Assembly (NCBI GenBank): GCA_044892505.1
Contig: CM097882.1
Span: 274,350,236-274,414,000 of the forward strand
Reading direction: 5' to 3'
Length of the DNA stretch: 63,765 nucleotides
Source of the DNA: Schmidtea nova
Taxonomy: Eukaryota
Positions within the stretch are counted from its first letter, which is position 1. Each line of letters starts with the position of its first letter. The notes under the pieces are model-generated. The model saw only the letters and a program-made list of their open reading frames with translations, was not told the DNA's origin and made no database searches. Positions 1,532 through 63,765 of the stretch are shown here, in pieces. A program made the position numbers and the translations under genes.

Positions 1532-1875
1532 GATTTGTTGGGTCCACCATTTGGTCAACATTTAACGTACAAAACATAATAATAGGAAAACAAATAGGAA
1601 TGAAGAAAATATTAATGTATTTAAATAAATTCCATTGAAAAAGGAATTAAAAGTAATAGAAAGATAAATGATATGGTGAAATCATAAGAAATAAAATTGA
1701 AAATGTTAAAAAGTCATAAGAAATAATATCTAAATAACATAAATTGGTTAACAATAGAATTTAATAGTTAAATTAAGAGAAAAATTAAAGAAATTTTAAG
1801 TTAATTGAAACAAAAAATAAATAGATTTTATTTTTAAAATTTATTATTATTTTGAAATAAAATTGTATTCATTGA

Positions 1876-1932
1876 TGATCAGCTTCACGCTGATTGGTCA
1901 GTGAACTGATCTGATCAGTATAAATACTGATC
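1876..1932 (+). promoter_or_regulatory. LTR promoter: CCAAT box (ATTGG) and TATA box TATAAATA at 1919-1926 inside a palindrome
   Basis: ctgattgg...GATCAGTAT-AA-ATACTGATC. The same arrangement occurs in copy B at ~17175-17250 on the minus strand. Confidence 0.6.
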
Positions 1933-2141
1933 CAGATTCAGATGATTTAAAATGTTAAAATTAACGTTAACTTTTTATGCTTTTATGCTTCAAGAAGTTT
2001 GAACTTTGAATCAACAGAGGTATGGAATTTGATTGTTTTATTATTTTTATATGTAATCTATCATGATTTTTTGATTATTTCTGTCATTGCTATTAATTAA
2101 ATAAATTTTTATGAAGAAATTTTATTATTTGAGATTTGTTT

Positions 2142-2349
2142 GAGCTTCTTCCACTGTGTAATCAGTGGAAGGAGGCAAATGTATTAAATTATTTTATTTG
2201 AAGTTTTATTCATGATTTAATTGAGCTTCTTCCACTGTGTAATCGGTGGAAGGAGGCAAATATATTTAATTGATCTTACATATTACAGTATAGATGTAGA
2301 TTATTATTCAAGGGGGCTCATGTTCATCGTGAAATCGATGAAAGGAGGC
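2142..2349 (+). repeat. Hairpin repeat array A in LTR copy A (2 full units + 1 variant)
   Basis: gagcttcTTCCACTG-TGTAAT-C(A/G)GTGGAAggaggc at 2142 and 2223; variant TTCATCG-TGAAAT-CGATGAA-aggaggc at ~2314-2349. Confidence 0.85.
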
Positions 2350-2763
2350 AGACTGTGCCGAGTAGATAACTGCTCCATACAGTTAGGCCGTCCGACTGGT
2401 ATAAAGTGCCACGAGGGGGGTAGAATTATAATAACCATATTTCTAACAATTTATCACTGGACAGTATAGCCAGTTTAATTTGGTTTTTATGTGAAAACAG
2501 TTTTATTTTTGAACGAAATTTCATCTTTGTCAATAAAGTATTATCATGTTCTTTGCGATTGTCACATCTGGGGTTTGTTCGCATAAAGCGGCTAGTATCA
2601 AATTTAGAAATAAGTGTAGAATGCACATCAGAATGCAAGAATGCAAAAAAAATCAATAACCCTAATAGAGTAGTTTAAGTGGGTCATTGATCTACCACAC
2701 AATAAAACACAATTGATCTGATGCTCAACACAAACTAAATAACATTGAAATTAATCTACTAGG

Positions 2764-2903
2764 CTGATCCCTGTATATAGGGCAGTAATTTCGTAAGATC
2801 TTCGAATTTAAATTGATATCCTGATTGCTGTAGATAGCACAGGCATGAATGAAAGGAAATAAAGTACCAAATGAATTTATCTGATCGCTGTACATAGCGA
2901 CAG
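2764..2903 (+). repeat. Hairpin repeat array B in LTR copy A (3 units, 57-60 nt period)
   Basis: CTGAT-CCC-TGTATATA-GGG-CAG (2764), CTGAT-TGC-TGTAGATA-GCA-CAG (2821), CTGAT-CGC-TGTACATA-GCG-ACAG (2881). Confidence 0.85.
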
Positions 2904-3015
2904 TGTTAAAATATAGAATGTATTTTATTTCTCTTCCTAGTTTTAAATATGAAACGAAATCTGTTAATTCGAATCAGCCGAAAATTATAATTAATGCCAC
3001 CAATTAATTCAGAAA

Positions 3016-3605
3016 ATGTCAAACAACGCAATCAATCTTCAATCCGAATTGGACAAGGCTTGGCGAATCATTCACAGCCTTGAGAAAGAAATATTGAAAA
3101 AATCAGAGAAGCTGAACACAGCAAAAACTACAACCTCTCAATTAAAGAAGAGCTGGTTTAGTCCAGACCAAATGAAGGCCCAGCTCATGAAGAACCAACG
3201 CTCTCAGCGAGCAAATGATGAGTTTAGAACCGAACTCGAAGCCACAAAAATAGAATTGAGAAAATGTTTAAAATCCGTAACAACATCTTTCATCAACAGC
3301 GAATTAAAACAGCTCATACGCCCAATCACGTACCAGCGTTGGTCAGAAGAAAAGTCTGAATGTACTAAAGGAACCAACACGGAAGAGCCATCTCAGGTTC
3401 GAGAAATACAAATTCAAATTGCACCAAAGAATGCAGAAATTTCCGAAAGCAAGAAAAAGAAGAAGAATAAGATGTGCGCAAGACAACACATTGTAAGAAG
3501 CAAGTAATGCAACAGCTGATCCAACATACGAAGGAATTTCCCGAAATCGATTTAACTACGGATTTCTCAGTGGATGATGAGGATTTCCTCAAATATTTTG
3601 AATAA
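3016..3605 (+). pseudogene. LTR-encoded ~196-aa coiled-coil/basic/acidic-tail protein, one -1 frameshift near 3490
   Basis: The 163-aa ORF continues in another frame as KKQVMQQLIQHTKEFPEIDLTTDFSVDDEDFLKYFE* (TAA 3603-3605), matching the C-terminus of copy B. Confidence 0.8.
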
Positions 3606-3696
3606 GAACTTGAAAATTTCTTGTCATTAAGTTTTGTACAAAATTTTAGTTTTATTATATTTTTGTTTTGTGATTATTTTATTATAAAGTATTTGG

Positions 3697-3702
3697 AATA
3701 AA
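3697..3702 (+). terminator. Putative LTR polyadenylation signal AATAAA
   Basis: Lies 90 nt after the ORF stop. The context aaagtatt(t)ggaa(a)taaagtattttattaaaaaattt is conserved in copy B (~15265-15290, minus strand). Confidence 0.5.
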
Positions 3703-4438
3703 GTATTTTATTAAAAAATTTAAAATTAATTAAATGCAAATTATAATTGACAATAGTGTTGATACATATGATTAATAATAAACAATAGGAACAGTAAAGC
3801 GATGATATATTGTAATCTATTGGAATAATTTGTTGATATTGTAAAGAAGGGGGCAGAGGGAAAAATTAAACAGAAAGATAATGTAATGAATAAATTAAAG
3901 TGAAAGTGAAGCGTAAGTCCTTCTATCGGCAGCAGACGAACCCGTGAACATAAATGGGGAGTAGTTTTAGCAATAGAGCTCACCTGCCCATCATTGTTCA
4001 AACACCTTGCACATTTCCAACTCGATTATTCCAGGGAAATAGTCGAGGGTGCTCGTGTGTCACGTAAGCATTTTGTTTTTGGTCTTGGATGGAGGCATCC
4101 CTAGAGCGTTTATTTATTTTCTACTTTTGTTTTAACCCATCCAAACGCCCAACAGATTATTGAAATCTCGAATCAACTAATGAAGACTTGCAATACGTTC
4201 AATGTTTATGAATCACATGCGATTCATGCTTTTATTATGCACATCATTTCAAAATGAACTTTAATGTTGTTTTTATTTACACATAAAGTATTATCTTATA
4301 GAAAAGATTTATGAATATTATTAAATGATATTAGTTTTAAAGAATTAAATCCCCACTAATATCTCCAATATCTTCAATTATATCTCCAAACATAAATGAC
4401 TTTGCCGTTCCACAACCAGATGCTTTTGCTTTTCCAAA

Positions 4439-11768: not shown

Positions 11769-14398
<2,630 letters not shown>

Positions 14399-14715: not shown

Positions 14716-15375
14716 AGAACAAAATTTTGGATTGGCGTTTGTTTTTAATATTATTATTATTTTAACAATAATAAATTAATTAATAAATAAGTAACAAAAT
14801 AAGCCTTTGCTGCAAAAACAATTTTGCTGGAGTATTGGATGGGTTAAAACAAAAATAGAAAATAAACTAAACGCTCTAGGGATTCCTCCGTCCAAGACCT
14901 AACATAAAATGCTTACATATCACACAAGCACCCTCGATCATTTCCCTGTAATAATCGAGTTGGAAATGTGCAAGGTGTTTGAACAATGATGGGCAGGTGA
15001 GCTCTATTGCTAAAACTACTCCCCATTTATGTTCACGGGTTCGTCTTGCTGCCGATATAAGGACTTACGCTTTACCTTTACTTTAATCTATCCGCATTCC
15101 TTATCTTTTAATTCAATTTTTCTTTCAGCCCCCTTCTTTACAATATCAACAGATGATCTTCAATCAATTACAATATGTTATCTCTTTAATGCTCCTATTG
15201 TTTATTATATTTATGTCAATCCTATTGTTAATTATAATGTACATTTAATTTAATTAAATTTTTTAATAAAATACTTTATTTCCAATACTTTATCATGAAA
15301 TAAATACGAAAACAAAAATTATAATCAAACTAAATTTTTATGCACAATTTAATAATACTAAAAATTCTCAAGTCA

Positions 15376-15982
15376 TCATTCAAAATATTTGATAATATCT
15401 TCATCAGTTACTACGAAATCCATTGTCAAATCAATCTCGGGCACTTCCTTTGAGTGTTGGATTAATTGTTGGAGTACTTGCTTTTTCCAGCGACGCTGAC
15501 GCGCGCCCATCTTACTCTTCTTCTTCTTTTTGACCTCTGCAATTGCTACGCTTTTTGGTGTGGTTGATGCTGTCGTTGCTTGAACCCGAGGAGTGTTCAT
15601 CCGTATTCGTTCCTTTTGAACAGCCTGATTTCTCTTCAGCCCAATGCTGATAGGTAATTGGACGGATGAGTTGTTTCAGCTCTTGATTGAGATAAGAAGC
15701 CGTTACCGATTTCAAACACTTCTTCAATTCCATTTTAGTGGCATCGAGTTCCATCTTTAGTTCATCGTTTGCTCGCTGAGAGCGTTGATTTTTGATGATT
15801 TGCGCCTTCATTTGCTCTGGACTAAACCAGCTCTTCTTTAAATTTGATATTGTGAGGTCAGCTTCTTTTATCCTTTCAGATTTTCTCAACATCTCTTTCT
15901 CCAGGCTGCGGATAATGCGCCACGCCTTGTCCAATTCTGTTTGAGGAGTTACTGAGTTGATTGACATTTTTCTAGAATTCAA
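15376..15982 (-). pseudogene. LTR-encoded protein, copy B, one +1 frameshift near 15595
   Basis: ORFs 15512..15982 and 15376..15600 join into one protein homologous to copy A (about 70% identical over the first ~124 aa by hand alignment). Confidence 0.8.
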
Positions 15983-16094
15983 AATGATTTATCAATATGA
16001 ACTTGGGCTTTTGGCTTGAATAACTCTCATAATTTCTACGATTGTTAATTTCTAATTCAGGAAAAGAAATAATATACATATTATAATTTCAACA

Positions 16095-16230
16095 CTGTCG
16101 CTATGTACAGCGATCAGATACATTCACTTGATAATACATTTCATTTATTCACGCCTGTGCTATGTACAGCAATCAGGATAAGGAATTATTAAAATTAACT
16201 AAGATCTACTGCCCTATGTACAGGGTTCAG
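16095..16230 (-). repeat. Hairpin array B in LTR copy B (3 units)
   Basis: Reverse complements read CTGAA-CCC-TGTACATA-GGG-CAG, CTGAT-TGC-TGTACATA-GCA-CAG and CTGAT-CGC-TGTACATA-GCG-ACAG. Confidence 0.85.
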
Positions 16231-16708
16231 GATAAGCAATTATTTTAATTCTCTGTGTTGAATATCTGATCCTTTAGCCTATTGATGGTATTCTACTTGC
16301 GTGGTAGATCACTGAACCACGCTATTAAAGTTATCGATTTTCTTGTTATTTCTCTTGTTCAAAGGTGTATTTTATGCTTAGTTCTAGACTTTATATCTGC
16401 CGCTTTATGCCCACAAACCCCAGATGTGACAATTGAAAAATAGGATACTATTTCGCTAACCAAATGTGAAATCAGATCAATAATAATCACGTCTATTATT
16501 ATCTCAAAATAAATTAAAACTCAAACTTAACTTCAAATTCATAATAATCAAATCTATTATCTTCTCAAAAATCAAACTTCAACTGGTTATACTATCCAGT
16601 GATAAAAACGTTAGAATTCATGGTTAATACAATCCTACCCTCCTCGTGGCGCTTTACACCAGTCGGACGGCCTAACTGTACGGAGCAGTCTTCTACTCGG
16701 CACACTAT

Positions 16709-17000
16709 GCCTCCTTTTCACCGATTTCACGATGTTCAGGAGCCCCTTGAATAATATGTATATATCTACAGTAACTACTCTACATAAATAATATATATTC
16801 GCCTCCGTCCACCGATTACACAGTGGAAGAAGCTCGACCAAAAAATGCTCATAAATAATATAACTCATGCCTAATTATTCACTGAATATAATAATGTTGC
16901 CTCCTTCCACCGATTACACGGTGGAAGAAGCTCAATAAAATATCAATACACGTTTAAATATCTTCGTCTCCTTCCACCGATTACACAGTGGAAGAAGCTT
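16709..17000 (-). repeat. Hairpin array A in LTR copy B (3 full units + 1 variant)
   Basis: gcctccttccaccgattacac(a/g)gtggaagaagctc-type units at 16801, 16899 and 16966; variant at 16709-16745. Confidence 0.85.
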
Positions 17001-19249
17001 AAATAATTCTAAATTCAAAAAATAAATCATATATAAAATTTCATAAATTTTAATTATCTTTACACAATGGTGACAGAAATCATGATTAACATAACAATAA
17101 AAAGAAAATCAAATATACCTTCAAATTGCTGCACAAAATTTTCAAGATTTTAACAGTAAAATTTTATCGTAATTATCTGAATCTGGATCAGTATTTATAC
17201 TGACCAGATCAAATTTTGAACCAATCAGCTTGAAGCTGATCATCAGACCAATACAAATAATAAATTTTATTAAAAAATAAAATCGATTTATTTTGTTTTA
17301 AATAGCTAACTTTTCTTGTTTTGATTTCTAGAATTTTATTAATTCTTTTTTCTTTATTACTTATTTATTTCACTTTCTTTTTATTTAAATATAATTACAT
17401 ATCATTCTTCTTAACACTTTTGACAGTTTCAATTCTATTTCTTCTAATTCTTTTAATATTCTTAATATCTTTTAATACTTTTAATTCATTTTTTCTGAAA
17501 TTTCTCGTAATTATATTAATATTAATTTATTCCTATTTATTTCTTAATGTTATTATTTTTACATCTAACTGTTGACCAAATGGTGGATCCAACAATTTTC
17601 TCACTTAATAAAATTGTTTTTGCAGCAAAGGCTTATTTTGTTACTTATTTATTAATTTATTTAATACTTAATGCTGCTACCAAGGAATCACCATTTTATA
17701 CTATAACAATAATAAAAATAATAATAATTATTATTAAATAATTATTAAATATCAAAATAAGCCTTTCCTGGAAAATTTTCACATAATAAAAAAATTTGCA
17801 GAAAAGACTTATTTTGTTAATTATTATTTATTTAATATTTAATTAATGCTGCTACCAAGAAATCATCATTTTATATTATTATTATTTTTATTAATATTAT
17901 TATTAAAATTATGAATAAAATTTTCTCATAAAATATTAAAATTTATGACCAATGTAAAATGCATTGTGGGTATACACTCCAACACATATTGTAGAAATTT
18001 GTTTTTCATTATACATGGATATTAAAATTATACGTTTATTAAAATTACAAATAAACAGATAATTTTGAGTGGTTTTAATTTAAATATCTGATTTGCAGCG
18101 GAAGCATATACTATCTGAAAAATATTTAGAACCATTAATTTAGTTATTTAAAAATAGTTTATAAATAAAATCAATTCTTTTATGAATTTCGGATGACTGT
18201 TTGATTAAAATAAAGTTTTGTTAATTGTTAAACATTAGACTATATAAAATAGCAAACACACATACATACTCTAACACAACACGCACCCCAGCTGTCCCAA
18301 AACAATTTCAAAGGAGACTCGACTGGGCTCGACAGTTTCCTTATATATACAGTCTTTAACAATTATGTTGAGATTCCTAGAATCTAAATTTGATGATTCG
18401 TATATAAAAAACACAAATCCTGCTTACTAAGTTTTATTTATCTATTACAATATTTTACAAGCTGATAAAAATTACCTTTTCATAAAAATGAAATTTTTAA
18501 CAATATATATGTATATATACACTCGTGTTTATAAGTGTTATGTAAGTGAATGCAGTGTTCTGACCTAGGATGTGTAAACTTTGCATGCTCTAATTTATTT
18601 TACAAATGTCGTCTACCGAAATTGTAGCTCTTCTTAGATTATAAGATTTAGGGAGTTATTTAACTGAAAAATCAGTCAGTTTATATACTAATTTTTAAAG
18701 CACTTAATCTGCCAATAATGATTGTTATTTTTCTACTTCAGTTGATTGAAATTGTTTTCAAAACAGAATTGTTTTTAACCTTGGAATTATTTCATTTTGC
18801 TGACTTTGTAGGTCATAAATATAATTTATTTAAACAAACAGTAATTTATTTATTTTAGTTTATTTAAACAATCAGTATTAATACACACTTGATAAAGGCT
18901 GCACCTAAATATTGTGTACTTATTTAAAGAAATTTTGATCAATAGTCAAATCAATGGGAATAATTGATATTAATATTTTATTTTTATTATTATTTTTAGT
19001 AATATTGCTATAATTTATTTTTTTTGAATTAAAACATAAATCAAAATATAAACCATTTTACAAATAGTTAAAAAAATTAATTTACATAAAATATTTTCAA
19101 AACGAAATATTCTTTTAAAATCACATAAAATTTTATCATTAATTGTGTCCACCGCCATAAGATAAAAAAATGTCAATAAATGTTCACAAGATCACAAATT
19201 GTAAATTGATAAATTATCATAATTATATTGTCAAAAATTAAATTATCAT

Positions 19250-19973: not shown

Positions 19974-21134
19974 AGTAGTAGGAAGTGAGCCCGCCAGATA
20001 TAGGTCAAGACCCCCCCCCTAGAAAATTTTTTTTATGTAGGTCAAATTTATGTAGGTCAATTTAAGGTCAAATTTTTTGCTTAAGGACACTTTAAGGACA
20101 CTTTAAGGACACTTTAAGGTCAAATTTTTTGCTTAAGGTCACTTTGAGGACACTTTAAGGTCAAAAAAGTAGGTCAAGGTCGTTTCAGGGACACTTTAAG
20201 GTGAGTTTAAGGTCAAATTTATGGTTTAAGGACACTTTAAGGACAAAAAAGTAGGTCAAGGTCGTTTTAAGGACACTATAAGGTCAAAAAGAATGCCAAT
20301 TTAAGGTCACGATAAGGACAAATTAAGTAGGTCAAATATTTTTAAGGTGAATTTAAGGTTAAAATAAGTAGGTCAAATATAATTTTCAAATTTTTTCTAT
20401 GTCAGAAAAAAGTAGGTCAAATATTTTTAAGTTGCTATGACAACGAATAAGTAGGTCAACTTTATTTTTTCAAAATTTGGTAGTTGCTATGACAACGAAT
20501 TAAGTAGGTCAATAATAATTTTGAAAATTTTTCTATGTCAGAATTAAGTAGGTCAAATATAAAAACTTAAAAATTTTTTTATGTCAGAAAAAAGTAGGTC
20601 AACTTTATTTTTTCAAATATTTTTCTATGTCAAAAATAAGTAGGTCAACTTTATTTTTTCAAAAATTTTTCTATGTCAGAAAAAAGTAGGTCACGAAAAT
20701 TTTTCTATGTCAGAAAAAAGTAGGTCTCAAAAATATTTCTATGTCAGAAATAAGTAGGTCAACTTTATTTTTATAAAAATTTTCCTGTGTCAGAATTAAG
20801 TAGGTCAAATATAAAATTATTCAAAGTTATAATATATTTAAAATATTTTCTATGTCGGAATTAAGTAGGTCAATTTAAGGTCAATGTGAGGACGAAATAA
20901 GTAGGTCAATTTAAGGTCAAGGTGAGGACAAATTAAGTAGGTCAATAATAATAATTTCTAAAATTTTTTCTATGTAAAAATATAAGTAGGTTAATAATAA
21001 ATTTCGAAATTTTTCAAAGTCAGAATTAAGGGTACATTCAGGGTACTATAAGGTCAACAAAGTAGGTAAAATATATTTTTTCTGTCAGAAAAAAGTAGGT
21101 CACGAACAATTTTTCTATGTCAGAAATAAGTAGG
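19974..21134 (+). repeat. Left terminal inverted repeat, rich in AAGTAGGTCA and TTAAGG(T/A)CA units
   Basis: Reverse complement of ~36990-38108; roughly 20 GTAGGTCA-type motifs by eye. Confidence 0.93.
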
Positions 21135-21674
21135 NNNNNNNNNNNNNNNNNNNNNNNNNNNNNNNNNNNNNNNNNNNNNNNNNNNNNNNNNNNNNNNNNN
21201 NNNNNNNNNNNNNNNNNNNNNNNNNNNNNNNNNNNNNNNNNNNNNNNNNNNNNNNNNNNNNNNNNNNNNNNNNNNNNNNNNNNNNNNNNNNNNNNNNNNN
21301 NNNNNNNNNNNNNNNNNNNNNNNNNNNNNNNNNNNNNNNNNNNNNNNNNNNNNNNNNNNNNNNNNNNNNNNNNNNNNNNNNNNNNNNNNNNNNNNNNNNN
21401 NNNNNNNNNNNNNNNNNNNNNNNNNNNNNNNNNNNNNNNNNNNNNNNNNNNNNNNNNNNNNNNNNNNNNNNNNNNNNNNNNNNNNNNNNNNNNNNNNNNN
21501 NNNNNNNNNNNNNNNNNNNNNNNNNNNNNNNNNNNNNNNNNNNNNNNNNNNNNNNNNNNNNNNNNNNNNNNNNNNNNNNNNNNNNNNNNNNNNNNNATCT
21601 TATAAAAAATGGAACAATCAAAAACTAAAATTTAAATTACTAACATTTATTAAATAACATTTATAAAATAACAT

Positions 21675-22142
21675 TTATGCATATCGTGCACTGTCAATTC
21701 TCCAAATTGGAGTTATAACATCTTTTGTATCTACTTTATAACCCTGAATAATTATATTAATGAACCAGTGTTCTTGATCCTTGTATTCGATTGATTGGAA
21801 TGCATCATGAAAACGAGTTTTTCTGTTGTTGATGTATATTGTTTCTTTGCAACTTAAATTTTTATTGATTTTCAATAAAATTTTATTTAGTGCAACAACA
21901 TCTTCTTTAGATATATTTGCAGCTAAACTGTCATACAATGATTTTGTTAATTTAACCGGATACAATAATCTAAAAGGTATTTCTTCTACCAAGAAATAAA
22001 TTTTATAGTCATAATACATTTGGACTGGTTTGACTTCTGTCTTGATTTTTCTTTTAATTCCTTCTTTCTTGTTTTCTTCCCCATTGATTGGGTTGTTAAA
22101 AATATTATCATAAGTAGGAAAATTTTCTTTGTAAGATTGCAT
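21675..22142 (-). CDS. Polinton accessory protein, 155 aa; possibly a ssDNA-binding OB-fold
   Basis: Intact ORF with a TATAAATA about 45 nt upstream. The C-terminal WFINIIIQGYKVDTKDVITPIWRIDSARY pattern is reminiscent of viral SSBs (inference). Confidence 0.6.
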   Translation of the reverse strand: MQSYKENFPTYDNIFNNPINGEENKKEGIKRKIKTEVKPVQMYYDYKIYFLVEEIPFRLLYPVKLTKSLYDSLAANISKEDVVALNKILLKINKNLSCKETIYINNRKTRFHDAFQSIEYKDQEHWFINIIIQGYKVDTKDVITPIWRIDSARYA

Positions 22143-22688
22143 TTTAATAATTGTGACATTATCTAAAAAATAGCTTTGTATTTATAGTCATGAGTTTATG
22201 TCTTTGTCCAATGAAAATGAAGCATTCACATTGTGTGTTATGGATGTGTGTATGTTATGCGTGTGTGTATGTCTTTGTTACATGTTTTTTGTCGAATGTG
22301 TGTATGTCTTTGTTACATGTTTTTGTCACATGTGTATCTTTGTCACATGTGTATCTTTGTCACATGTATTAAATAATTGATCATGTGTGCGTATTTTTAT
22401 TTAGTTAAATGTTTTATTTAATGTCTTTATTTAAAATGTTTATGTATTTAGTTAATATTTATATTTCTTTATAAGTCAAATTGTTTTAATAATGAAAACC
22501 TCTATATTAAGAAAAACATTACTATTTAAAAAAAATAAACTAAAACCTGAACTTTAATATAAATTTATAAACAAACTAAAATACTAATACTAATAAATTT
22601 ATTAAATGAAAACTAAAAAAGGTAATTATAACACACAAAAACATAAATAATAACAATAAAAATAACATAAAACATAAAATATATACAA

Positions 22689-23210
22689 TTATTTCTGTGG
22701 TGATGATTGATTGCAATCTATCATTTCACGATTGCATTCTTCGTAATCTGGAAGATCATCGGTAATCTTGCGATGACATTCCTCACAATTAGGTGATTCT
22801 GGCGAATCGCCGCATTGTGACAATTTATCACATTGAATCGATTCGTCTGTAGGACCCGAACAATCAGCGGATCCATTGTAATCAGGAGTACTATTGGGCC
22901 ATATTTTAGGTTCTTCTTCTTCTTTTGAGGATTCTAATTCGAATCTTTTTAGTTCCGTCCGCAAAATCCATATACAGAACCTCTCAATTCGGTCAGTACA
23001 ATGACCGCATTGATAGGCACACAGGATGTGCTCGGCCATGAAAGGGATTTCGACATTTAGATTTGCGAGGTGGTCCAGCAATATTTGATTAATATCTATT
23101 CCCGTAATACACTGGATCTTATACGGGAGTAGTTCCGGTGCTGTGTAAGTCAGCTGCGTCATCAAATTGGGGAATATTTCTTCCAGTTTTCTGTATAATA
23201 CAGCCATCAT
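22689..23210 (-). CDS. Polinton orphan protein, 173 aa, Cys-containing with acidic C-terminal half
   Basis: Intact ORF (CAYQCGHC; CEECH). A possible upstream ATG micro-exon with a GTAAAT...AG intron lies at ~23211-23263. Two CCAAT boxes at ~23372 and ~23426. Confidence 0.6.
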   Translation of the reverse strand: MMAVLYRKLEEIFPNLMTQLTYTAPELLPYKIQCITGIDINQILLDHLANLNVEIPFMAEHILCAYQCGHCTDRIERFCIWILRTELKRFELESSKEEEEPKIWPNSTPDYNGSADCSGPTDESIQCDKLSQCGDSPESPNCEECHRKITDDLPDYEECNREMIDCNQSSPQK

Positions 23211-23457
23211 CTTTTCTAAAAAAGTAAATTATAAAAAATGTAAACAAGTAATTTTTTAATTTACCATTTTTGAGTTTTGTCGATGTGAGACTCATTTTAG
23301 ATATAAATTATCACAAAATGTTCATGGTACGATAGTAACACACACAACATATATGAAATAATACACACATAACCAATCAGATTCGAGTGCACGTAATATG
23401 TCTTTATCTGATAAATACATACACAGCCAATCAGAATCGTGCATTACTATTGTAGGT

Positions 23458-23943
23458 TTATTGCAAACATGAGTCACATGATAATAAAAAATCTAAAAAG
23501 TCTTTATCTTCAATAATTGATTTTATATCGATAATAATACTATCAACTATATTATAATAATCCCTATTTTTTAACCCTAATATCACTACTTTACCGCTTG
23601 CAAATATATTAACACACATAGGATTATATTTTATATATCTCAAAGCTGGAAATATTTCTGGCTCGTAAACACAATCCATTAATTTAGCTAAAACATTTAA
23701 ATTACAACTAAATCCCAAGTCTACCGTTACAGTAATTGATTGTATTTTTAAATCATAAATCTTTATTTTTTCATCACTAATAAATTCCTTGCATCCCATT
23801 ATTCTAAATCTTCCGGTCTTAAAAAATATTATCGGGTACTTACCACTTCTATCAATAATTTGCTGCGGTTTCCCCTTTGGGAAATTCAAGTGAGATACAT
23901 CAGTTTTACCCTTATAATTTATGTTGCTAATCATTACTTTCAT
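23458..23943 (-). CDS. TATA-binding protein (TBP)-like protein, 161 aa
   Basis: Two TBP repeats: ISNINY...IIFFKTGRFRIMGCK and KIQSITVTVDLGFSCNLNVLA...YEPEIFPALRY...NIFASGKVVILGLK, compared with canonical KIQN...YEPELFPGLIY...LIFVSGKVVLTGAK. Confidence 0.88.
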   Translation of the reverse strand: MKVMISNINYKGKTDVSHLNFPKGKPQQIIDRSGKYPIIFFKTGRFRIMGCKEFISDEKIKIYDLKIQSITVTVDLGFSCNLNVLAKLMDCVYEPEIFPALRYIKYNPMCVNIFASGKVVILGLKNRDYYNIVDSIIIDIKSIIEDKDFLDFLLSCDSCLQ

Positions 23944-24030
23944 GAATATTTTTTAAATATGAGAACTGTAATGAAAACTATTATTTAAAACAAATATAAA
24001 CAATAATACTAAAATAATAAAATAAAAAAT

Positions 24031-24654
24031 ATGGAATTAAGAAATGATGCAGTGTTTCAAATTGTTGGACCGAGCGGGAGTGGGAAAACTTTATTTGTTT
24101 GTAAATTATTACAATCAAAATTATTTAAATTAAAGTTTAATAAAATTTATTGGCATAGGGGTGCGGATGATGAACATGGAATGACTCAAGATCAATTTTG
24201 TAAAATAAAAATGACTATAATAAAAGGTTTCGATAAAAATTGGTCATCTAGATTACGACAAGGTGATGTGATTATTATTGATGATTTGTACCAAGAAGCA
24301 AATAAAGAAAAGGATTTTAATAATTTATTTACAAAAATCGCTAGACACAAGGGTGTTACAGTTATTTTTATTACTCAGAATTTATTTCATCAGGGTGGTA
24401 GTCATCGAACTCGTAATTTGAATGTTCAATATCTTGTTGTTTTTAAAAATCCTAGAGATGCAACAGTTATTGATTTTCTTGCAAGACAAGCATACCCTTC
24501 TAATCGTAATTTCTTGATTGATGCATTCCAAGATGCCACAAAAGCCCCTCATGGATATCTTTTTCTTGATTTCACGCAACAATGTAGTGATGATTTACGA
24601 GTTAGAACAGATATTTTCAACAAGGAAGGAGCAATGGTTTATAAACAAAGTTAA
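24031..24654 (+). CDS. A32/FtsK-like genome packaging ATPase
   Basis: Walker A GPSGSGKT, Walker B VIIIDD, ARHKG and ITQNLF motifs. Confidence 0.95.
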   Translation: MELRNDAVFQIVGPSGSGKTLFVCKLLQSKLFKLKFNKIYWHRGADDEHGMTQDQFCKIKMTIIKGFDKNWSSRLRQGDVIIIDDLYQEANKEKDFNNLFTKIARHKGVTVIFITQNLFHQGGSHRTRNLNVQYLVVFKNPRDATVIDFLARQAYPSNRNFLIDAFQDATKAPHGYLFLDFTQQCSDDLRVRTDIFNKEGAMVYKQS

Positions 24655-24674
24655 CTGGATGTATATTATCAATC

Positions 24675-25215
24675 ATGTTAATGAAATCTAGAGTAAAGTT
24701 TGAGCGCTTGATAAAGGCTAGAAAAATGAAGAAACCGGGAAAGAAATTAGTTTCAAAGAAAGTATTTACAAAGAAAACAAAGAAACCAGTTTCAAAAACC
24801 AGTTATACACCATCTAAAAAATTACTTATTGATAATATCCCAAAAAGTAATCGTATTCAAAATACTTACAAACCAAATCCGAAACAAATACATCATCGTA
24901 GTTTCCCATTTTTCAATGCATTACTTAAAGCCCCTAGTATTAGAAGAATGAGTATTTTACAATCATTTCCTAATTATGTTATTGACGATTTACTAATGAT
25001 TTATTAAAGTTGTTAGAGGTAAAATCAATATAAGTGAATCTAATAGAAGAGTTTTGAACAAACACAAGAAACCATTGTTATCACTTGTAAAAACCAAAAA
25101 TAGAAAATTAATGCGTAAAATAATATATAAACAACAAGGAGGGTTTATTGCAGCATTGTTACCATTAGCATTATCACTATTAGGAGGTGCTGGTTTATTA
25201 GGAAAACAGTCATAA
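24675..25215 (+). pseudogene. Basic core protein with C-terminal adenovirus pX-like QQGGFIAALLPL motif; one-base insertion near 25000
   Basis: Removing one T in ATGATTTATTAAAG joins the K-rich 110-aa ORF to KVVRG...KQQGGFIAALLPLALSLLGGAGLLGKQS* (179 aa in total). Confidence 0.7.
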
Positions 25216-25270
25216 ACAATGGGACAATCGTTGCCTAATCTTAATTTAAACTTTAAATCTTCTTGTTGTA

Positions 25271-60299: not shown

Positions 60300-60870
60300 G
60301 CTTAGGAATATCAGGTATAACCATCAATCACGTTGTTATTGTTCGAGAAAAACGAGAAAGAAGTATCCAGGAGAGAGAGAGAGAGAGAATGAGCAGATAA
60401 AACTCCAGATCACCAGGTTGTCAATAGGAAGCACTAAACTGCAGCGTAAATTATTTACCCCCGAACAGATGAAGCCCCAAATCATGCGTACCGAACGAGC
60501 CAAGCGTGCAACATCTGAGGTCCAAAAAGAGCTGGACGCTGTGAAGATAGAATTGAGCAACTTTCTTAATAAGGTAACGGGGTCATACATCGAATCCAAA
60601 CTGCGGTTGTGCATCTGGCCTTCGATTATCAACATTGGACGGAAGTCGAGAGAACCAAACAACTGGTTGGAACTGATACGTCTGAATTACTCGCGGAACT
60701 GCCTTTCCTCCCGAAAGCCTCAGTACAAAATAGAAGTGTTTCCATAAGCGGCTCAAAGAGAAAGCGTATCGGATCTAAACGCCGAAAGCAGAAGAAGGCA
60801 TGGGCGCAACATCTAACGTCTCGAACGATCGCTTAAGGGATTTAGTCGAACTAGATCTGTTAGCAGAGAT
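60300..60870 (+). pseudogene. Third, diverged homologue of the LTR-encoded protein, frameshifted
   Basis: FTPEQMKPQIMRTERAKRA..E...ELDAVKIEL...VT.S; after the shift DYQHWTE...GTDTSE...KRKRIGSKRRKQKK. Confidence 0.75.
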
Positions 60871-60897: not shown

Positions 60898-61038
60898 TGT
60901 GATTTAATATATATTATTATGTTTAGTGTTTGTTAGTTAATGTTAAGTATAATAGGAGATGTTGTAGTGCCCGAGAGAGTCTTACAAAAACAGTGTGTAG
61001 ACACTCGGGGTGCTTGCTGTGTAATGCACAAATTTACA
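60898..61038 (-). mobile_element. Short (~140 bp) solo LTR related to the LTR at 62559
   Basis: Reverse complement shares acacagca.gcaccccgagtgtc...gactctctcggg..ctacaa with 62559-62660. No clean TSD; a further degenerate copy lies at ~51630-51750. Confidence 0.5.
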
Positions 61039-61124
61039 ATAAATCCAAAAATAAAAAATAATTAACAAACAACCAAATTCCAATAACAAACTATATTTTG
61101 TAAAAGAAAAAACACTTCACTCAC

Positions 61125-62415: not shown

Positions 62416-62558
62416 CTAGCCAATTTTATTTATACTGAAGATTGAGCTGTTTTCTCCGAAACACTATAAAGTAACTTCTGTAAAATTGTATATTTGACAA
62501 TATCTTGTTATAGTTAATAATTAATTTATCACTTTGTTTATTATTTTATTTTGTCACT

Positions 62559-63765
62559 TGTAATCTACCAATACACAGCATACACCCCGAGTGTCCCCAC
62601 AACAATCGGGCTGACTCTCTCGGGATCTACAATTCTCCTCTACATCACACACTCAACAAACTAAAATCCAAATTAGAACTGCGCATAGACTATAATAACT
62701 GGTGTCAGAAGTCAACACACACACACACTCGCCGTTTTTTTCAAGCGTTAACGCCTTTAGAATACCTATTATAGAGGTATAAGGATTAACGTTACTTTTA
62801 GCCGAACACAGTAGGCTATATCCTTCAGTCAAGCTCATTTTTTTCACATAAAAAAACAACATAACAAACAACAACAATACAAATCAAATGGCATCAAATC
62901 AAACAAACTCAAATACCATACAAACACCCATTGACAACGAAAATACACAACCCCAACACCCAAACAACAATTTTTATTACAACGACGAAAACACCCAAAT
63001 ACAAAGGGAAAGTAGCCACTATTATTTTAACCCAGAAAACACTCACACAATTAATCCAATGATTAACCCAATCCCAAATTTTTTTATCAACGAAGAAGGT
63101 TCGGTGCAAACATGGTTGAAACTAGCCAAATTGACATTAACCTTGAGCGGGATAACCTCATCAAGACTAATATGCTCACAAATATTCACAGCACTCCCAA
63201 GCAATATACACAAATCAATTGCGGATCAAATAGACACAATTTTCAATTGCAATAACCCATTTGAAAAACTGTGCAGCATATTAGCAAATAGGGACGAAAC
63301 AAACAAAAAAGAAATACAGGAACCTTTCACAAACAACAGGCAAAAGGATAATACCCAAAATAATCTTTCAGGTCCACTAAAACAGAATTTTGAGTACGAC
63401 CAAACAAAATTAGCAAACATTGATGTAAATGAACGGAGATCATGCCAAACATTAGCAACTAAAAACAATGAAACCGAAAATAAAAGGTGGACAGACATGG
63501 TCGATAAAATAAATGCAGGAGATTACCCCAGTATTAATAGTACTCATGACTACAAAAACAAAATACTGAACCATGAACAAGATGAGAATGAAGACGAAAA
63601 AACAGAATTTAACGAAACAAATAAAATCCTAAATAACTTGATAAGTCAACTTGACAAAATCGCAACTGAAAATAAAAGGTTCAAATCAGAACTAAAAGAA
63701 ATTAAAGAAAAAAATCTAAAACAAAACTACTGTCCAAATCAAATATCGTACAGGCTCAATAGGCC
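62559..63765 (+). mobile_element. 5' end of a Gypsy (Mag-like) retrotransposon: short LTR ~62559-62699, tRNA-Leu PBS at 62700-62712
   Basis: TGTAAT start; PBS TGGTGTCAGAAGT is complementary to the 3' end of tRNA-Leu; a gag ORF follows. Confidence 0.75.
62888..63765 (+). CDS. gag: Gag-like ORF, open to the window edge (absent from the ORF track)
   Basis: At least 292 uninterrupted codons; PNFF...VQTWLKLAK...GITS...ALP...I...NPFEKLCSIL resembles the Gypsy Gag N-terminal (DUF7041-type) pattern. Confidence 0.7.
   Translation, partial: MASNQTNSNTIQTPIDNENTQPQHPNNNFYYNDENTQIQRESSHYYFNPENTHTINPMINPIPNFFINEEGSVQTWLKLAKLTLTLSGITSSRLICSQIFTALPSNIHKSIADQIDTIFNCNNPFEKLCSILANRDETNKKEIQEPFTNNRQKDNTQNNLSGPLKQNFEYDQTKLANIDVNERRSCQTLATKNNETENKRWTDMVDKINAGDYPSINSTHDYKNKILNHEQDENEDEKTEFNETNKILNNLISQLDKIATENKRFKSELKEIKEKNLKQNYCPNQISYRLNR

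Follow-up and report, generated by a model that had tools for sequence, protein, structure and literature searches.

A selected accessory gene inside the long terminal repeats of Burro-like Ty3/gypsy elements of Schmidtea nova, with a possible role in RNA processing

Long terminal repeats (LTRs) are usually taken for control DNA that encodes nothing, and when only a solo LTR is left, the element's genes are considered lost. In the 63,765 nucleotides of Schmidtea nova DNA analysed here (hereafter the window), two solo LTRs nevertheless carry versions of the same reading frame of about 196 codons. What is such a frame, to what element does it belong, and what might its product do? We find that the accessory frame is real, under selection and unusually placed among the accessory genes of complex retroelements.

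Copies A (1536–4154, plus strand, 2,619 nt, TGTTGG..CCAACA ends) and B (14825–17594, minus strand, 2,770 nt, TG..CA ends) are solo LTRs: both have terminal TG..CA and 4-bp target duplications (GATT at 1532–1535 and 4155–4158 for A; AAAT for B), and internal genes are absent. They lie as inverted repeats of each other and are 69–80% identical blockwise. LTRs of the copy A type, which we assign to a Burro-like Ty3/gypsy element, also flank gag-env-pol elements at other genomic loci. Both ends were found for 22 genomic LTRs; seven are 5' LTRs, and the 15 without a primer site have an exact 4-bp duplication in 13 cases and a single mismatch in two. A 5-bp duplication was rejected, as the A at −5 is absent in 7 of the 13 exact cases. 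Copy B sits in a palindromic repeat; frequent targets of these LTRs are one another and palindromic AT-rich repeats (L026 at G000:C1:441.87 Mb; L031). One locus, L062:127–7898, is a tandem of three LTR units, two of which end at the same point of the conserved 3' block; it is the sole such locus, and its shortened junction at 4008 was not used for placing the R region. At L033:5403–8339 (minus strand), a 979-aa frame with ubiquitin and Hsp90-like pieces is flanked by two duplicated LTR fragments. The window also holds a 617-aa frame at 11982–13835 (minus strand), a putative transposase of the hAT type.

The parent of the LTRs that carry the accessory frame is a Burro-like giant Ty3/gypsy element, matched to Burro by its published description. 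Two pairs of LTR matches, 35 and 50 kb apart and with LTRs 98–99% identical, are whole elements of the lineage to which copies A and B belong (lineage 1, below); three closer pairs were rejected as whole elements, being nested or duplicated solo LTRs. The lineage-1 examples span 35–52 kb including nested insertions of other transposons, and a lineage-2 element with few such insertions runs 28.6 kb end to end in the same gene order. Pfam matches in the lineage-1 parents comprise a gag with a CCHC knuckle, a fusion glycoprotein, ankyrin repeats, zf-TRAF and MATH, joined in one of the two by RT, RNase H and integrase. The glycoprotein (PF24664, Monjiviricetes-type) stands as env between zf-CCHC and the protease in lineages 1 and 2, in frames broken by stops, and the pol order in the parents, PR-RT-RH-IN, is that of Ty3/gypsy. 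A RING frame lies 3' of the primer site. No match to BIR was found in the parent element, and the lineage-1 parent gave no Pfam match to BCL2-like or ubiquitin-like modules; a weak Bcl-2 match (E 3.4e-04, under the cut-off) sits in a nested element of opposite orientation. The planarian giant Ty3/gypsy element Burro/GYPSM1 is described as near 30 kb long, with CCHC knuckles in gag, PR-RT-RH-IN, an env-like fusion glycoprotein between gag and protease, ankyrin, TRAF/MATH, a RING frame and accessory frames (PMC6431247). Size, gag, env, pol order, ankyrin, TRAF/MATH, RING and accessory frames are thus common to both, whereas the TRAF/MATH of the parent here occupies a separate frame downstream of pol, unlike that description, section 7 of which names no LTR-internal gene (PMC6431247).

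The primer site of these elements begins 6 nt past the LTR and is complementary to the end of a genomic tRNA-Pro(TGG), and the 3' LTR junction has no plain purine run, which is why purine-tract and adjacent-TGG patterns missed the parent. From G000:C1:459.61 Mb onward (L152), tRNA-Pro genes are repeated in a long tandem array whose period is 308 nt, with 1,106 pattern matches genome-wide; the arrayed tRNA-Pro is the primer tRNA of these elements. The window further contains a Maverick/Polinton (20011–38070) with terminal inverted repeats, a protein-primed polymerase (31942–35904), integrase, ATPase and capsid-like frames, relatives of which are nested within Burro-like parents.

The accessory frame occupies 3016–3605 on the plus strand in copy A and 15376–15967 on the minus strand in copy B, opening at 3016 and 15967. 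As the initial annotation had described, the same frame of about 196 residues is broken in each copy by one frameshift at a different place, near 3488 in A and, as a net shift in the linker, near 15565–15595 in B. Its claim that the ancestral frame was intact is borne out by 14 of the 30 best genomic loci, which hold an intact 196-aa frame. The identity of about 70% that it had given for the N-terminal 124 residues is 89/124 (72%) at the protein level, and the many synonymous changes are likewise there: other codons encode 36 of the 89 identical residues, with the GCT/GCG, CGA/CGC and CTT/CTG pairs all present. Over the first 124 codons, A and B differ 16, 16 and 60 times at codon positions 1, 2 and 3, with dN 0.17 against dS 0.83 and a reversed ratio in both shifted frames, which served as controls. 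A search of the same genome gave 8,569 first-look candidates, of which 150 were scored; all 150 match at E ≤ 1.3e-53 with 74–100% identity. Among intact copies dN/dS is about 0.2, in agreement with the purifying selection proposed from the two window copies. For 33 distinct intact frames (528 pairs), dN/dS with transition weighting is 0.19–0.27 in all bins above dS 0.05, and 0.09–0.20 without it (120 pairs saturated), values that come from non-independent pairs and, as intact frames only were used, are biased slightly downward. The 3–7 closest pairs give 0.36–0.65, a rise expected if copies decay after insertion. Within the lineage-1 protein, dN/dS is 0.14–0.21 in the helices, 0.50 in the linker, 0.08 in the basic motif and 0.27 in the tail. 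LTR identity, intact copies and selection together uphold the view that this is an accessory gene of the retroelement; the initial annotation's wider reading, an uncharacterised trans-acting regulator, is supported in part.

A distant, degraded homologue from an older lineage lies at 60367–60833 (plus strand) and matches the family profile; its first stretch was included in that profile, and 60573–60833, which was not, matches at E 8.5e-05. Further copies of it are 50–69% identical, and LTR ends were looked for around the window copy and not found. Beyond it, a short inverted pair near 60966–61065 and 62513–62665 precedes an open frame of at least 292 aa (62888–63765, plus strand), which stands behind tandem repeats, runs off the window and has no Pfam match.

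The gene extends beyond lineage 1. The genome holds 166 junctions between an LTR end and the primer site, and among the 30 examined, 16 carry the lineage-1 frame, 6 carry homologues at 34–37% identity and 8 give no match. In a tree of 34 rows, the accessory proteins fall into four lineages, each a supported clade, with 24–38% identity between them and a branching order that rests on long branches; dN/dS in lineages 2–4 is 0.14–0.28. Upstream of the accessory frame, lineages 2, 3 and 4 carry a second LTR frame of 150–190 aa (L098:4053–4526, L095:4175–4630 and L118:2417–2980), likewise constrained, with dN/dS of 0.14–0.31 and in some cases an acceptor-like site of its own. It has no match in lineage 1 and none in Pfam, and its structure model (pLDDT 44) is too poor for a fold search. 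Lineage-4 loci have LTR-like termini, and some of these loci form pairs 31 and 38 kb apart. Four related LTRs with the tRNA-Pro primer site are gene-less, with a TATA box 645–909 nt from the end and no frame there, so the clade either replicates without the accessory gene or keeps it elsewhere. A separate locus, L032:5438–6076, holds a frame of 213 aa with a coiled coil and, towards the C terminus, a basic stretch. This frame is about 20% identical to the accessory protein, and the family profile gives no match to it.

The protein is laid out as a coiled coil (aa 2–100), a linker, a basic helix (aa 145–174) and an acidic and hydrophobic tail. The N-terminal coiled coil that had been read from the sequence is supported by structure models: AlphaFold predicts, for the monomer, helices at 2–47, 50–100, 103–114 and 155–174 and a short end helix (pLDDT 74, pTM 0.29), with a linker predicted to be disordered (pLDDT under 50 at aa 115–147). 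The homodimer is modelled as a parallel, in-register coiled coil over residues 2–95, scoring 0.51 against 0.00 for the best of three controls, on a mark reached by 21/30 solved pairs and 0/23 single chains, by 17/29 in eukaryotes, and by only 1/7 where an older solved relative is missing; at least 66% of contacts are shared between runs, and pLDDT is at least 60. The motif KKKKK..ARQRRWKK, attributed to both copies, is complete in B together with the tail, but copy A reads ARQH at its frameshift. Its description as an Arg-rich, Rev-like motif stands in part: a basic stretch is present in all four lineages and is Arg-rich in lineages 2 and 4, but it is Lys-rich in lineage 1 (at locus L003, 11 K/R in 19 aa, of which three are the R residues of RQRR), and likeness to Rev in sequence or fold is absent. 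The acidic tail (8 D/E and 1 K/R in 33 aa, plus bulky hydrophobics) is similarly a feature of lineage 1 but missing in lineage 3, where the export-signal-like tail is not conserved, and is thus not universal.

Outside the genome, the protein has no match among 5.8 billion proteins close to it in length (64 candidates; a mostly microbial collection), and Pfam, PDB sequences, and PDB and viral folds gave no real homologue. The sole match among 1.84 billion mostly microbial representatives (E 1.6e-07) was set aside as non-specific, being repetitive, helical and akin to a bacterial surface protein. None of Rev, Rex, Tat and Tas was matched in Pfam (E ≤ 1), in a PDB profile search or in fold searches including viral structures, so 'Rev-like' can be used here as a functional analogy only. 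A match to Gag or a host gene, which the initial annotation had named as one of the findings that would count against it, did not appear: the best profile match among 542 internal frames has E 0.12. The accessory and second LTR frames represent two protein families without recognised relatives.

Around the frame, the LTR carries what look like the signals of a transcription unit. A predicted promoter at 1890–1926 combines a reverse CCAAT box (1890–1899) with a TATA box (1919–1926) set in an inverted repeat. The TATA motif occurs in 36 of 38 lineage-1 LTRs; CCAAT and TATA are also found in lineages 2–4, and inverted repeats flank TATA in lineages 1–4. A predicted splice donor, AG/GTATG (2018–2024), would start an intron at 2020; its columns agree with copy A in 19–22 of 22 copies, against 5–17 of 22 for 12 upstream flanking columns (copy A as reference and 22 full copies, with one rearranged copy and 15 partial loci excluded). 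A predicted branch point, TTAAT (2991–2995), and an acceptor CAG (3010–3012), three bases before the ATG, have their TTAAT and AG columns conserved in 21–22 of 22. YAG stands at −5 to −3 of the start in 36 of the 37 lineage-1 copies in which the start was found, and an acceptor-like YAG right before the start codon recurs in four lineages, though the DNA there is unalignable; in lineage 4 the ATG is often immediately preceded by a pyrimidine tract and AG. An alternative acceptor at 2939–2940 was dropped as poorly conserved (8–10/22), as was AATAAA at 3697–3702 as a poly(A) signal. The candidate signal retained, ATTAAA (3710–3715, within 3707–3715; columns 20–22/22), would end both the accessory mRNA and the R region. 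A poly(A)-like hexamer follows soon after the stop codon in lineages 1, 2 and 4, 400–520 nt from the LTR end: 19 of 20 lineage-4 loci place AATAAA or ATTAAA at the stop codon, and of the LTRs shown, 2/2 from lineage 2 and 1/2 from lineage 3 have, about 520 nt from the LTR end, AATAAA followed by a GU-rich tail. Since the region is AT-rich, single hexamers are weak evidence, and position and conservation carry the argument. A second AATAAA (2100–2105), within the predicted intron, could be a premature or alternative poly(A) signal; it is found in 22 of 23 lineage-1 LTRs (columns 20–22/22) and is not clearly kept in other lineages. Taken together, the predicted promoter, the two splice sites and the poly(A)-like hexamer around the frame make each LTR resemble a complete spliced gene. 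No poly(A)-tailed retrocopy was found at the 3' block. The predicted splice joint was absent among the 15 of 23 joints listed from four runs of contigs of unrecorded kind, uninformative on expression; these runs cover all 30 bins, the predicted intron included.

Three sets of RNA structures can be drawn in the LTR. Within the predicted intron, three repeated hairpins with a UGNAAU loop (2142–2176, 2223–2257 and 2315–2349) form a candidate response element. They fold with z of −4.8 and −4.9, and over 35 distinct instances the six stem positions free to vary hold 49 G-U against 2 C-A cells, an excess that points to structure in the sense-strand RNA; these lineage-1 hairpins give no alignment to lineages 2–4. 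Further along the predicted intron, three short bulged hairpins (2764–2785, 2821–2842 and 2881–2903) present in the loop the octamer UGUANAUA, which resembles the Pumilio element. The octamer is kept at each of the three places in 22–23 of 23 LTRs, and the stems vary among the repeats yet still pair. Taken whole, this region has no folding advantage over shuffled sequence (z −0.07). The most conserved block of the LTR, at 3910–4075 (column identity 98–99%), contains GTAAGT (3913–3918) and an RNA structure that bears a GNRA-type loop and covaries, with double changes at 16 of 37 predicted pairs in three lineages. In 5' LTRs this block precedes the primer site; it is common to gene-bearing and gene-less lineages, has no Rfam match and is probably a packaging or priming element.

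Coding sequences that overlap an LTR, and are thereby duplicated in both LTRs, are known for MMTV sag, HIV nef and foamy virus bet; these occupy U3, upstream of the main promoter, and the 3' LTR is the copy from which they are expressed. The accessory frame is likewise duplicated, but its place is downstream of TATA, and since it has a predicted intron and a poly(A)-like hexamer of its own, even a solo LTR would amount to an entire gene. By analogy, the product resembles HIV Rev, HTLV Rex and Tat in being small, basic and predicted to oligomerise, with a spliced early mRNA and structured intron RNA predicted here as well; it is unlike them in its long coiled coil, its Lys-rich motif in lineage 1, the absence of a sequence or fold match and a gene wholly inside the LTR. 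A Rev-like function in an invertebrate Ty3/gypsy element is already known from CERV of C. elegans Cer1, an element that also has a tRNA-Pro primer site (PMC10309623). CERV is reported to be made from a spliced mRNA, to be nuclear, with a zipper, a basic signal and predicted self-association, and to be required for genomic RNA export (PMC10309623). CERV and the accessory protein are thus alike in zipper/basic layout, Ty3/gypsy host and primer tRNA, and export is the function proposed below; CERV is, by contrast, the product of an internal gene and differs in size and position (PMC10309623). Plant LTR retrotransposons also carry conserved additional frames, described as obscure in origin and function (PMC7264820). 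Narrow phrase searches and the pertinent passages of PMC8532177, PMC11410931, PMC13524379, PMC13465017 and PMC7264820 gave no LTR-internal gene in Burro or other Ty3/gypsy elements; Grohme 2018 and Lee 2026, on Burro1, fall outside that scope and may annotate the frame.

We tentatively favour, at a little under an even chance, a reading in which the accessory product acts, by analogy with Rev and Rex, as an RNA-processing switch of the Burro-like element. By default, any LTR (5', 3' or solo) would give a short RNA, begun near 1950 and spliced to remove a 993-nt intron, whose 3' end would fall about 450 nt short of the LTR end; the gene would then sit within an R region of about 1.75 kb. Genomic RNA would have to retain the intron, which is needed for rebuilding the LTR, and to read past the poly(A) signals in the 5' LTR. 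Dimerised by its coiled coil, the protein would reach the nucleus through its basic helix and bind the repeated intron hairpins, favouring intron retention, read-through and export. The outcome would be a switch from early, spliced to late, genomic RNA, which solo LTRs could also throw in trans. The strong constraint, with its lowest dN/dS in the basic motif, is consistent with such a switch, as are the conserved acceptor, the poly(A)-like hexamers, the G-U bias of the hairpins, the basic stretch, the dimer model and the precedent of CERV as a Ty3/gypsy protein of this kind (PMC10309623). Against it, the basic stretch may be just a nuclear localisation signal, the gene-less relatives and the want of hairpins common across lineages count as adverse, the intronic AATAAA permits a different R boundary, and no intron-less LTR was found in the genome. 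The searches that failed to match Rev, Rex, Tat or Tas also count against it, as does the loss of the export-signal-like tail from lineage 3.

The main rival, which we consider rather unlikely, is a transcriptional activator of the Tat, Tas or Tax kind: the basic helix of the dimer would bind the TATA palindromes or a nascent hairpin, and the acidic, aromatic tail would activate transcription, with early LTR transcripts feeding back positively. The inverted repeats beside TATA in lineages 1–4 and the coiled-coil dimer model suit it, as does the acidic composition of the tail with its bulky hydrophobics, but lineage 3 does without that tail, the basic region lies C-terminal to the zipper and past a disordered linker, the reverse of bZIP, and the nuclear exit of intron-bearing RNA is left unexplained. 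It is unlikely that the protein instead addresses the host or the particle, whether by antagonising silencing or defence or as a coiled-coil adaptor, and is encoded in the LTR for early, abundant production. The strongest constraint falls on the basic motif and the predicted intron holds conserved RNA hairpins, both of which speak against a host-directed factor, even though the parent already has host-directed modules (RING, TRAF/MATH, ankyrin), the gene is dispensable in some lineages, and a RING-BIR product of Burro1 is reported to protect stem cells (work cited in PMC13465017).

Two further alternatives concern the map and the gene itself. If RNA 3' ends formed just past AATAAA 2100–2105, R would be about 175 nt long and a U5 of 2 kb would contain the gene; the donor would suppress 5' polyadenylation and the protein would help read-through. 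The near-invariance of this hexamer in lineage 1, 80 nt past the donor, and a foamy virus precedent (PMC3694450) argue for such a map; we regard it as very unlikely, because the hexamer, unlike the post-stop signal, is not clearly kept in lineages 2–4 and because the post-stop signal and that of the gene-less LTRs match in distance from the LTR end. That the frame arose by chance, or is a piece of Gag or of the host captured passively, is hardly credible: both window copies are broken and coiled coils have low information content, but dN/dS near 0.2 in four lineages and the reversal of the codon pattern in off-frame controls refute it, and the internal-frame comparison and the absence of a database homologue agree.

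More broadly, if the Rev/Rex-type reading is extended to its full scope, a complete spliced regulatory cassette encoding one or two new protein families would sit in R as a Rev/Tat-style switch outside the Retroviridae, and each of thousands of solo LTRs would be a self-sufficient mini-gene able to influence, in trans, both the elements that survive and RNA processing in the host, a prospect that we hold possible but doubtful. In these elements, the LTR seems to hold a whole gene, and in some lineages two, kept down to a divergence of about 25% identity. If solo LTRs are expressed, this element-rich genome would have in them an extensive source of a nuclear basic protein. The locus also opens a standing question to direct test, namely by what route an element produces and exports a 30-kb RNA that contains an intron and carries poly(A) signals at either end.
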